A DNA stretch of 64,000 nt. It comes from an uncultured Verrucomicrobiae bacterium (GTDB taxonomy: Bacteria; Chlamydiota; Chlamydiia; Chlamydiales; Rhabdochlamydiaceae). The position numbers and the translations under genes were made by a program. The notes beneath the pieces were generated by a model. It was not told where the DNA came from. It was given only the letters and a program-made list of their open reading frames with translations, and made no database searches. Of the stretch, positions 44,311-46,604 are shown piece by piece. The DNA lies in the NCBI GenBank assembly GCA_963806855.1, contig CAWDYW010000003.1:542129-606128 (forward strand), in the 5' to 3' direction. Position 1 is the first letter of the stretch. Each line of letters starts with the position of its first letter.

Positions 44311-46604
44311 ATGATCTTTAAGATTGATAGAGAGGTTTGGGAGCGCTACCCCCATCTGAAAGTGGGGATTTTGATCGCACGCAATGTGAACAACGGTGTC
44401 CAAAATGCCGATATTCTCAAGCACTTGCGCAAATGTGAGCACGATGCCAAGAATAAATATGCTCAAGTCGATCTTGGGAATGTCGAGAAGCTCATCGACT
44501 GGCGCGAGGCCTATCGTTCCTTTGGCTATAAACCCTCTTCTACCCGCTGCTCTGCAGAGGCCCTTTTACGACGGGCTCTGAAAGACAATCAGCTTCCCGA
44601 TATCAATCCGATCGTTAATCTCTACAACAGCATCTCCTTAAAGCACACTCTCCCGCTTGGAGCTGACGATCTCGACCGTCTAGATGGACAATTGCGCCTG
44701 ACACTTGCGAAAGGGGACGAGCGGTTTGTCGCTTTGGGTGGCGGCGAGGCTGAAGTTGCTCTGCCCGGCGAGGTGATCTACCGCGATGACAAAGAGATCA
44801 CCTGTAAGGCATGGAACTGGCGCGAATGCGATAAAACCAAACTCACCGCCCAGACGAAGAATGCGGCTTTGGTCGTAGAGGGGCTGGAGCATGCCCACTT
44901 GAGCGAGATGGCCCATGCTCTCAAAGAATTAAAGGAATTGATCGAGCAGTATTGCGGCGGCACATTCGAGATGTATCTCTTGGATGCGACTCATCCTGTA
45001 GTTGAAGAGGGCTCCAAGCTAGAAAATCGAACCATTCCGATTGAGATCCGCAAACCCGAGTACCAAAAGCACGAAGCCTTTATCACTCGCAAAGCGAAAT
45101 TAGATGAGATCCTGGAGATGGGGCTCGATCCCTACCCAGCGAAATTCGAGCCGACAAATACAGTTGGTGCGATTTCGTCGAAGTATGAAGGCCAAGAGGT
45201 GGGGACCTTCGAAGAGGCGCAAGAGGGTAAATCTGATCACGCGCTTCTCGCAGGGCGTATCATCCTTTTCCGCCCCATGGGGACCAATATTTTTGCTCAA
45301 CTGCTCGATGAAACCCACAAGATCCAAGTGCTCTTCAATCGAGATCATACGATGGTGAAAGGGCTAGCTGCCGATCAGTCGCCAATTAAGTTCATCGAAA
45401 AGAAACTCGATCTGGGCGATATCATCGGCGTTGAGGGAAATCTCTTCCGCACACAGAAGGGGGAATTGACCCTTTTTGCAAAAGAAGTCACTCTACTCTG
45501 CAAATCGCTGCTCCCCCTTCCTGATAAGCACAAGGGGATTGTCGACAAGGGCACCCGCTACCGCAAACGTTGGCTCGATCTGATCGCCAACTCTGAAGTG
45601 GGTGAGCAATTGCGCCTGCGCAGTCGCATCATCGCCCTGATTCGGAAATACTATGCCGAACATGGTTTCTTGGAAGTGGAGACCCCGATCCTGCAAAATA
45701 TCTATGGCGGTGCTGCTGCCAAGCCTTTCGTGACGCACCACAATGCCCTCTCACAAGATATGTACCTCCGCATCGCCCTCGAAATTGCCCTCAAAAAACT
45801 GATCGTCGGCGGCATCAACCGAGTCTACGAGATTGGAAAAGTGTTCCGCAATGAGGGGATCGACAGGACCCATAACCCCGAGTTTACGATGCTCGAGGCC
45901 TATGCAGCCTATTGGGACTACAATGATGTGATGGTCTTCACCGAAACACTCTATGAAGGCTCGCCATGGAGATCTTCGGCACCACCAATATTGGCAAGCG
46001 GGAAGACAAGAAGGGCAATGTCCATGAGATCGATGTCAAAGCCCCTTGGATCCGAATGACGATGAAACAGGCGATCAAACACTATGGAAAAATCGATGTC
46101 GACCAGCTCAGCGACCAGCAGATGAGAGAAAAGCTCGAAGGAAAGATCGACCGAGAAAAAATGATCGATGCTTCACGCGGGATCCTCATCGCCCTCCTCT
46201 TCGAGGAATATGCGGAAGAGCATTTGATCCAGCCGCACCACATCACCGATCACCCGATCGAGACGACCCCCCTCTGCAAGCTCCACCGCGACCCCAAAAT
46301 GCGCCAGGAGCGATTTGTCGAGCGATTTGAGAGCTTTATCCTTGGAATGGAATGCTGCAATGCCTACACCGAGCTGAACGATCCGATCCTGCAACGGGAA
46401 CTGCTCGAGCAGCAGGCGATGATGCGCGAAGCGGGCGACGCCGAGGCTAACCCAATGGATGAAGAGTTCATCGAGGCGATCTGCCAGGGAATGCCCCCCA
46501 CAGGTGGTTTGGGAATCGGAATCGACCGGCTCTGCATGCTCTTTACCGGCGTCCATTCAATCCGCGATGTGCTGTTCTTCCCCGTGATGCGCCCTGAGGA
46601 ATAA
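44311..46604 (+). pseudogene. lysS: class II lysine--tRNA ligase with an N-terminal B3/B4 domain, one frameshift (pseudogene or sequencing error)
   Basis: Residues 1-220 carry B3/B4 (COG3382-like) motifs ([25 protein letters not shown]). They are followed by the LysRS OB fold and class II core. The frame breaks near 45958, and ORF 45966..46604 continues the core. Confidence 0.8.

Follow-up and report, generated by a model that had tools for sequence, protein, structure and literature searches.

In the window analysed here, a stretch of 64,000 nucleotides, the lysS gene encodes a class II lysyl-tRNA synthetase (LysRS) that is preceded, in the same reading frame, by a B3/4 domain. The features of the locus are the following:

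44300..44305, + strand: putative Shine-Dalgarno-like sequence AGGGAG, 5 bases ahead of the ATG at 44311 (sequence inspection)
44311..44985, + strand: CtdA-family B3/4 deacylase-like domain, residues 1-225 (Pfam, matches to CtdA in PDB, AF2 model, Foldseek)
44986..45054, + strand: linker of about 25 residues, residues ~226-248 (alignment of six fused and three plain LysRS)
45055..45956, + strand: first part of class II LysRS, comprising the N-terminal helix, the OB anticodon-binding domain and the catalytic core up to the frame break (Pfam tRNA_anti-codon 313-396 and tRNA-synt_2 413-548; NCBIfam lysS_bact positions 5-286)
45956..45957, + strand: one base missing when compared to relatives; contigs of three runs carry an additional T after 45956 (tblastn of P0001, DNA alignment with three relatives, contigs of X1, X2 and X3)
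45957..46604, + strand: remaining 215 residues of class II LysRS in the next frame, stop included (215/215 identical to residues 550-764 of P0001; Pfam tRNA-synt_2 positions 147-307)

The four peptides quoted in an earlier, sequence-only reading of this DNA are all present in the ORF 44311..46059 (+ strand, 582 aa), which shows neither a stop codon nor a frame change from 44311 to 45956. As that reading had claimed, roughly the first 220 residues match the family of free-standing B3/B4 domains, with both Pfam B3_4 and CtdA sequences among the matches, and the frame then continues without a stop into a class II LysRS. The B3_4 (PF03483) match covers residues 64-205 (E 8e-28, 97.6 bits against a cut-off of 29.3), and is followed in the same ORF by the OB anticodon-binding domain at residues 313-396 and by tRNA-synt_2 from residue 413. 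When six fused LysRS were aligned with three plain ones, a linker motif (S-K/R/L-LENR-T/S-I-P/Q-x-EI) was found to be conserved, with the original N-terminus of LysRS (PEYxKHE) located directly after the linker. The pLDDT is 55 at residues 241-250 of the full-length AF2 model, in which the catalytic core was poorly modelled (pTM 0.42), and we propose that the B3/4 domain is joined to LysRS through a flexible segment of roughly 25 residues. The suggestion that Met221 (44971) might serve as an internal start was not borne out: six species have M, M, M, I, C and M at this position, and where plain LysRS has its Met, the aligned residue of the fused proteins is Ile, Val or Ala.

A check for split genes in relatives, set beforehand, revealed no stop and no frame change between the two domains. 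Among the nine other genomes of the genus, five carry one uninterrupted ORF of 762-764 aa holding both domains. The four remaining genomes comprise two in which the gene is fused as far as the contig end, one with a plain LysRS (G008), and one, 78% complete, in which lysS was not found. A metagenome contig from another run (X1), ~93% identical to the window, runs across the junction without a gap. The same continuous ORF was observed at 18 of 80 species-representative loci (the best 80 of 532 GTDB matches), and in a genome of a sister genus within the family (G017) the order is inverted, with LysRS first and the domain second. In a sample of 250 genomes from the phylum, 27 encode the domain within an open frame no shorter than 684 aa (585 aa in the window's own genome). 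These results confirm that the B3/4 domain and class II LysRS, encoded in one continuous frame, form a genuine and conserved fusion. The domain is nevertheless dispensable, as 212 of the 250 genomes gave no match to it and G008, within the same genus, does without it. A search of the window's genome for a second LysRS of either class found none, the fused gene being the sole lysS. This gene is under purifying selection: when the window was compared to G003, dN was 0.058 for the domain, 0.068 for the LysRS core and 0.16 for the linker, with dS saturated.

The extra domain had been labelled as being of the PheRS-beta editing type, but its closest relatives lie elsewhere. In a phmmer search of PDB, the best matches were the two CtdA sequences, 9f7e (E 1.1e-32) and 9mkl (E 1.3e-31), over residues 61-221, whereas PheRS beta appeared at E 0.005 or weaker. 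The AF2 model of the domain (pLDDT 93.6) aligned by Foldseek with CtdA at a TM of 0.83-0.87 over 229-231 columns, and with PheRS beta at a TMq of 0.47-0.62 (Foldseek E 1e-7 to 1e-10). The pheT model TIGR00472 scored 24.9-27.4 bits on the window ORF, against a cut-off of 402.65, so that the ORF is not a pheT member, and the B3_4 domain of the true pheT of this genome is located elsewhere (G000:C3:332493-332993). PheRS beta shares the basic fold, is matched by the same Pfam family and likewise has its post-transfer editing site built into the synthetase polypeptide, but its similarity to the window domain is distant (12-15% identity), and only an Asn is common to the editing residues of the CtdA and PheRS types (PMC12449066). 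By sequence and by fold, although it is not free-standing, the N-terminal module is thus a member of the CtdA family.

CtdA was described in 2023 as a stand-alone canavanyl-tRNA(Arg) deacylase (PMC10018355, PMC12449066). The proteins of P. canavaninivorans (9f7e) and S. enterica (9mkl) have the same fold and length as the window domain over ~230 residues, including the CtdA-specific helices, with 30% identity in the structural alignment. The window domain keeps Gly117 and Cys165, together with the Tyr-Asn pair of the ester site and Glu190, the second glutamate at the deep end. It differs in being fused to LysRS, when CtdA is a free protein, in its presumed partner, tRNALys instead of tRNAArg, and in four substitutions with respect to CtdA, Glu118 to Asp, Trp187 to Ala, Trp158 to Tyr and Gln173 to Glu, the last of which places a Glu where C. 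perfringens CtdA also has one (PMC12449066).

Candidate catalytic and pocket residues were mapped by hand from the CtdA alignment with the help of PMC12449066 and PMC12268091. In P. canavaninivorans CtdA, activity was abolished by Y104F, N105D, E118Q and E191V (PMC12268091); these positions correspond to Y105, N106, D119 and E190 of the window protein, the essential E118 being Asp here. The CtdA pocket residues G116, C166, Q173 and I189 (PMC12449066) correspond to G117, C165, E172 and V188. The 75 N-terminal class II fusions retain Y105 in 74 cases, N106 in 73, E190 in all and C165 in 66. The position of CtdA E118 is occupied by Asp in 67/75 N-terminal and 26/27 C-terminal class II LysRS fusions and in 11/11 class I fusions, or 104 of 113 LysRS-fused rows altogether, and by Glu in all 18 ArgRS fusions, both solved CtdAs, the GNAT fusion and a Clostridium stand-alone protein. 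The identity of this deep-end carboxylate thus appears, from the alignment, to track the fusion partner, with exceptions. Glu is found in G004, from the window's own genus, and in P0029, P0030 and P0107; P0099 is a true LysRS that carries a Glu-type domain of the ArgRS clade; and Asn occupies the position in P0053-55 and in P0088, which also lacks G117 and C165. Since the rows are related, few independent contrasts stand behind this rule. A second candidate signature for Lys versus Arg, Phe139/Val163 against Gly139/Phe163, separates LysRS-fused from ArgRS-fused domains, but both solved CtdAs are Phe/Val, and these positions therefore distinguish the ArgRS-fused clade and do not indicate Arg specificity.

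The fusion partners were verified for 120 long homologues among the matches listed (127 hits). Within this set, class II LysRS is the partner of 90 (65 with the domain at the N-terminus and 25 at the C-terminus), the non-homologous class I LysRS of 11 (9 N-terminal, 2 C-terminal), ArgRS of 18 (N-terminal) and a GNAT protein of one, with no further partner. In trees, the ArgRS-fused domains form a single clade (SH-aLRT 99), and the LysRS-fused domains are scattered at several places among stand-alone forms; the domain has repeatedly and independently been fused to synthetases. The 53 stand-alone loci among the best 80 of 532 GTDB matches include one adjoining a class I lysS (L059), one adjoining argS (L093) and 51 adjoining neither, so that gene neighbourhood lends the editing reading weak support. 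The stand-alone gene at L093, which is of the Asp type, immediately follows a true argS. At L057, the neighbour that looked "class II-like" is an AspRS. We also looked for changes in the LysRS active site that accompany the fusion, and no clean column was found among 63 N-fused, 26 C-fused and 18 plain chlamydial LysRS; the best column of the LysRS core, position 493 (A/S versus P), overlaps, with S in 5 of the 18 plain proteins.

Textbooks present LysRS as a synthetase that lacks a separate editing domain. Neither LysRS nor ArgRS is known to have a domain dedicated to post-transfer editing (PMC5370406). The same review reports that LysRS clears homocysteine, homoserine and ornithine within its catalytic site, and that the E. 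coli enzyme leaves Arg-, Thr- and Met-tRNALys uncorrected. Because the family of the module is known from CtdA as an aminoacyl-tRNA deacylase, proofreading in cis is the best-supported reading, and we consider it probable, from residue conservation and fusion partners, that the domain is a tethered post-transfer editing module that removes a cationic look-alike wrongly attached to tRNALys.

Under this reading, the only LysRS of the cell would carry a CtdA-type aminoacyl-tRNA deacylase domain tethered at its N-terminus. LysRS would occasionally place a wrong, long cationic amino acid on tRNALys; the tethered domain would then take the aminoacylated CCA end into its acidic-bottomed pocket and hydrolyse the ester. 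Tyr105 and Asn106 may position the water, and Asp119 and Glu190 may grip the cationic end of the side chain, with correct Lys-tRNALys expected to be a poor substrate. A fixed geometry does not seem necessary, since the same domain subfamily occurs at either end of LysRS, and the fusion probably keeps a trans-type editing factor where mischarged tRNA is released. The deacylase activity, the action on tRNALys and the nature of the substrate are predictions, for the last of which the leading candidates would be Arg-tRNALys or tRNALys carrying guanidino or lysine analogues (canavanine, homoarginine, thialysine, oxalysine, canaline). Thialysine is incorporated instead of Lys (PMC12546413).

A first alternative, which we regard as unlikely, is that the domain still acts in trans as a canavanyl- or arginyl-type tRNA(Arg) deacylase, the fusion serving only for co-expression, stability or placement near the translation machinery. 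The closest characterised relatives do act on Can-tRNAArg (PMC10018355, PMC12449066), recognition of the tRNA body by CtdA is not yet explained (PMC12449066), and the exceptions point the same way, with an ArgRS-clade, Glu-type domain on a LysRS (P0099), a Glu within the window's genus (G004) and an Asp-type stand-alone gene adjoining argS (L093). However, fusions to two unrelated classes of LysRS, at both ends and in 101 of the 120 homologues listed, are hard to account for without a tie to tRNALys or to LysRS. The replacement of an essential Glu by Asp in 104 of 113 LysRS-fused rows also argues against it, and an exposure of these organisms to canavanine does not seem obvious.

Less probable still is that the domain is a non-catalytic, tRNA-binding appendage through which LysRS would bind tRNALys more tightly, as the N-terminal extension does in the eukaryotic enzyme. 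Annotations list the B3/B4 fold as tRNA-binding, and synthetases commonly bear appended RNA-binding domains. Basic residues also surround the pocket entrance, for example K74, R87, R88, K166, R171, K175 and K177 (compared with the list in PMC12268091). A mere tRNA clamp would not, however, require the almost invariant Y105, N106, G117, E190 and C165, and the dN of the domain is as low as that of the LysRS core.

Comparable arrangements are known for the editing domains of other class II synthetases and their free counterparts, ThrRS N2, AlaRS/AlaX and ProRS INS/YbaK/ProXp, which follow the same pattern, one deacylase fold being both a free trans factor and a cis synthetase domain, but with a fold and a synthetase that differ from those in the window. 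LysX, the mycobacterial MprF-LysRS fusion, likewise has a class II LysRS preceded by a large additional module. That module is, however, a membrane lysyl-phosphatidylglycerol synthase and not a B3/4 domain, and LysX is a second, specialised LysRS, whereas the fused gene of the window is the only one; the NCBIfam LysX model scored 495 bits on the LysRS part, under its cut-off of 742. No published description of a LysRS-B3/4 fusion was found in the main texts of the CtdA papers or in full-text literature searches, although the supplements of the CtdA papers, including a table of 1249 CtdA-encoding organisms, could list fused proteins. Public databases annotate the fused architecture only as "lysine--tRNA ligase".

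More broadly, and tentatively, both classes of LysRS as well as ArgRS may repeatedly have acquired a CtdA-type deacylase in lineages that depend on hosts (Chlamydiota, Babeliales, DPANN archaea and CPR bacteria), with the Asp-type branch as a new, tRNALys-directed specificity class. If the editing proposal is true, amino-acid-importing cells would face an unrecognised mischarging problem at Lys codons, caused by Arg or by a natural cationic antimetabolite, and would possess a new proofreading route for these codons, as would the ArgRS fusions for Arg codons. The three-year-old CtdA family would then be widened beyond canavanine, and Asp versus Glu at the pocket floor would be a simple sequence marker for testing specificity. 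The tRNA partner of the CtdA family is experimentally tractable through the fused forms, because the synthetase names the tRNA.

That two genes were merged through a lost stop or an assembly indel is scarcely credible: single-base errors do occur in this stretch, as lysS has one after 45956 and cysS has two, but the same continuous ORF in five complete and two contig-cut genomes of the genus and at 18 of 80 species-representative loci, the domain in a long open frame in 27 of 250 phylum genomes, the ungapped X1 contig and a linker conserved as protein all speak against it. The single-base indels suspected in the sequence-only reading are present, but none of them lies at the junction. Owing to the base missing after 45956, the last 215 residues of lysS run in another frame to 46601, so that the lysS frame is not intact in this assembly. 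The base is carried by contigs from three runs in three studies (X1, X2 and X3), which are contigs of relatives, no run sharing more than 0.10 of the sampled words of the window and no RNA run being listed for this stretch. The X1 contig spans 44486-46604, and its sole gap is the missing base. As three other runs carry the base and the gene is the only lysS, the one-base deletion is probably an assembly error. P0001, which corresponds to the window protein without the frame break (764 aa), scored 547.8 bits with lysS_bact TIGR00499 against a cut-off of 427.6, and the two LysRS pieces of the window alone scored 332.3 and 198.7 bits. Just upstream, cysS contains two more frameshifts, near 43150 and 43380.

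The lysS gene of the window reads from the extra domain into the LysRS part with no stop and no change of frame between the two in the sequence. Its features are as follows:

44311..46059, + strand: lysS ORF, ATG start, with AGGGAG just 5' of the ATG
Residues 64-205 of this ORF: B3_4 (Pfam, E 8e-28)
Residues 313-396: OB anticodon-binding domain (Pfam)
From residue 413: tRNA-synt_2 (Pfam)

The NCBIfam LysRS models start to match at residue 256, and all peptides quoted in the sequence-only reading are present in this ORF. Downstream of the junction, the absence of one base after 45956 interrupts the LysRS part and places its final 215 residues in the next frame, up to 46601. 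P0001, a 764-aa homologue from the protein collection, is identical to the window translation at 548 of 549 residues before the break and at 215/215 after it, and scores 547.8 bits with lysS_bact (cut-off 427.6). An 83-aa ORF on the same strand between cysS and lysS (44012-44263) had no Pfam match at E 0.01 or better.

The continuity of the fusion was checked in relatives, a test set beforehand, and was borne out. In five of the nine other genomes of the same genus, the gene is a single uninterrupted ORF of 762-764 aa, each with B3_4, the OB domain, and the class II core, and in two more it is fused as far as the contig end. G008 carries a plain LysRS, and no lysS was found in G007, which is 78% complete. 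No sequencing run contained more than a tenth of the window's sampled words, and the matching contigs were those of relatives. A contig of 3084 bases from run X1 (~93% identical) spans 44486-46604, and its alignment has only one gap, where the contig shows an additional T after 45956. The same T was observed in short contigs (~98% identical) of two further runs from other studies. Thus, relatives are continuous across the junction, where neither their ORFs nor the X1 contig show a gap, and only the window's assembly has the frame break. As this gene is the only lysS of its genome, a search for class I LysRS found none in G000 (the window's genome), in the comparison genomes G001, G002, and G003, or in G017, from a sister genus of the same family, and cysS contains two more frameshifts, an assembly error is likelier than a recent mutation. 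The cysS gene (42575-44031), which lies upstream of lysS and is intact and 479 aa long in relatives, here shifts its reading frame near 43150 and again near 43380, so that three frames are used. With the lysS break, a stretch of 3.5 kb has three single-base indels in two essential synthetase genes, which, in an assembly of 3 contigs that is 83% complete, points to consensus errors rather than decay. The earlier caution about indels was thus justified for lysS after 45956 and twice for cysS, but not for the junction between the B3/4 domain and LysRS, and it is hardly conceivable that the fusion itself is an assembly artefact.

G000 measures 2.44 Mb and nine same-genus genomes 1.6-1.8 Mb; the excess could be real extra content, assembly duplication, or incompleteness of the others. 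The core of the plain LysRS of G008 (contig C21, locus L014) is only 62-63% identical to that of the window, whereas plain LysRS from other genera of the family reaches 65-69%. The G008 lysS may have been replaced, rather than stripped of its domain.

A flexible linker ties the domain covalently to the single LysRS of the cell. The linker has a conserved motif (S-K/R/L-LENR-T/S-I-P/Q-x-EI), after which comes the usual N-terminus of LysRS (PEYxKHE). Met221, which had been proposed as an internal start, was abandoned, since the aligned residue varies (M, M, M, I, C, M). Where plain LysRS has its start Met, the fused proteins have Ile, Val, or Ala. In a comparison of the window with G003, with dS saturated, dN was 0.058 for the extra domain, 0.163 for the linker, and 0.068 for the LysRS core. 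The domain is therefore constrained as strongly as the essential enzyme and is under strong purifying selection.

The sequence-only reading had described a B3/B4 domain of the PheRS beta editing type. The Pfam assignment to B3_4 stood, but the nearest solved relatives in a PDB sequence search were two structures of CtdA, the canavanyl-tRNA(Arg) deacylase (9f7e, E 1e-32; 9mkl, E 1e-31), with PheRS beta at E 0.005 or weaker. The AF2 model of residues 1-235 (pLDDT 93.6) superposed on CtdA with a TM of 0.83-0.87 and on PheRS beta with a TMq of 0.47-0.62. The discovery of CtdA in 2023 (PMC10018355) provided the first B3/B4 editing protein that stands alone. Excerpts of the structure and mutant studies of 2025 (PMC12268091, PMC12449066) state that activity requires each of Y104, N105, E118, and E191, that E118 and E191 form an acidic pocket floor thought to hold the guanidinium group, and that C166 modulates discrimination between canavanine and arginine. 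Mapped by hand from the PDB-search alignment, Y104, N105, G116, C166, and E191 are kept in the window as Y105, N106, G117, C165, and E190, and E118 is replaced by Asp (D119). Three other positions are changed: Q173 to E172 (Glu in C. perfringens CtdA as well, according to PMC12449066), I189 to V188, and W187 to A186. The fold is thus of the CtdA type, and the domain has both the Tyr and the Asn of the catalytic pair as well as acidic residues at the floor of its pocket.

The domain alone was searched against a collection of 5.8 billion proteins, restricted to those of 419-1334 aa. Among the best 120 of 127 matches, it was N-terminal to class II LysRS in 65, to the unrelated class I LysRS in 9, to ArgRS in 18, and to a GNAT acetyltransferase in 1, and C-terminal to class II LysRS in 25 and to class I LysRS in 2; no other partner was present among these 120. 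Representative partners exceed the curated NCBIfam cut-offs (lysS_bact, lysS_arch, argS). Uptake of the same subfamily has thus been repeated and, among synthetases, confined to LysRS and ArgRS, the two whose amino acids have long cationic side chains.

In a genome set with one genome per species, a relative is encoded in 532 stretches. The best 80 loci comprised 18 domain-LysRS(II) genes (chlamydial by record titles, two being labelled Verrucomicrobia, plus one Babeliales), 8 LysRS(II)-domain genes, one LysRS(I)-domain gene from an Iainarchaeum, and 53 stand-alone genes of ~233 aa, from DPANN archaea, CPR bacteria, Dependentiae, Aminicenantes, Thermotogae, and others by record titles. In an even sample of the window's phylum, 38 of 250 scored genomes had the domain, 11 of them in short form only. 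In the other 27, it lies in an open frame no shorter than 684 aa (585 aa for G000), a proxy for fusion that a domain search confirmed for G000-G004, G006, and G017. In G017, the order is reversed, and LysRS precedes the domain within a single ORF of 768 aa.

From the architectures alone, the domain must have been fused to LysRS on at least four separate occasions. In domain trees (FastTree, 247 rows; IQ-TREE quick, 102 rows), the ArgRS-fused domains and one LysRS-fused row, P0099, formed one clade (support 98 and 99), and the remaining LysRS-fused domains fell in a large clade mixed with stand-alone forms (97 and 95), within which a chlamydial clade united N-fused, C-fused, and free forms (99). 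P0093 and P0107, further C-terminal fusions, were placed elsewhere.

The pocket-floor residue (CtdA E118) followed the partner. It is Asp in 67/75 N-terminal and 26/27 C-terminal class II LysRS fusions and in 11/11 class I LysRS fusions, and Glu in 18/18 ArgRS fusions. Because of the relatedness among the rows, several of which are almost copies of one another, the evolutionary contrasts behind these counts are few and do not number 130. Glu is also found in both solved CtdAs, the GNAT fusion, and a Clostridium plasmid stand-alone. Exceptions on LysRS are G004, from the window's own genus, P0029, and P0030, all with Glu; P0107, likewise with Glu; and P0099, a Glu-type, ArgRS-clade domain on a true LysRS. 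Four rows have Asn, one of them also lacking G117 and C165. An Asp-type stand-alone gene (L093) lies directly downstream of a true argS, and another stand-alone gene (L059) downstream of a class I lysS. Positions 139 and 163, considered as a second partner signature, were rejected because both solved CtdAs show the LysRS state there, so that they mark the ArgRS-fused clade only.

These data suggest that LysRS has acquired a deacylase of the CtdA family as a cis-acting domain, probably one of altered specificity. Its substrate would be tRNALys charged with an incorrect cationic amino acid, hydrolysed shortly after it leaves the synthetic site, and Lys-tRNALys would be spared. Proximity would be a simpler mechanism than a fixed shuttle path, since N- and C-terminal attachment both seem to work and class I LysRS and ArgRS are shaped quite differently. 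The simplest idea for the substrate is that the pocket may have retained a preference for side chains with a guanidino group; according to a review (PMC5370406), Arg-tRNALys is formed by E. coli LysRS, which is unable to deacylate it. Translation also tolerates thialysine and other analogues of lysine, as stated in another article (PMC12546413), and canavanine, homoarginine, oxalysine, and canaline would be further candidates on chemistry alone. Sequence comparison revealed no change in the LysRS active site accompanying fusion. That the domain is a Can/Arg-tRNAArg deacylase acting in trans, with LysRS as a mere carrier, appears unlikely given the pocket-floor residue seen on LysRS, the Glu exceptions notwithstanding; a non-catalytic appendage binding tRNA seems more doubtful still, the Tyr-Asn pair being kept. 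A small share of the probability falls to other explanations.

In public databases, proteins of this architecture are named simply lysine--tRNA ligase. None of the words fused, fusion, LysRS, and lysyl occurs in the main texts of the CtdA papers cited above, and no description of the LysRS fusion, or of ArgRS fusions with a CtdA-like domain, was found in full-text literature (main texts, outside subscription journals).

The ArgRS fusions (P0085, P0090, P0091, P0094, P0095, P0098, P0100-P0102, P0104-P0106, P0108, P0109, P0111, P0115, P0118, and P0120) are 850-1120 aa long, with a Glu-type CtdA-like domain at the N-terminus, and would be cis-editing ArgRS enzymes; two have source names from Candidatus Gottesmanbacteria. 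The class I (archaeal-type) LysRS fusions (P0087, P0092, P0096, P0097, P0103, P0110, P0112, P0114, P0116, P0117, and P0119; locus L092) have Tyr at the site held by Val188 in class II fusions. The Dependentiae stand-alones L047, L048, and L054 (TM6/Babeliales records) have Gly at the pocket floor together with Tyr at 186, which would represent a third pocket type; Gly occupies the pocket floor in 13 of 114 rows from the top-120 list of short homologues.

In P0113, the CtdA-like domain is fused to a GNAT acetyltransferase, and two GNAT genes lie ~0.9 kb from the stand-alone homologue on C. acetobutylicum pSOL1 (L022:4582-5554). A canavanine-selective GNAT has reportedly been described (PMC10416765), and the two enzymes may form a detoxification pairing.
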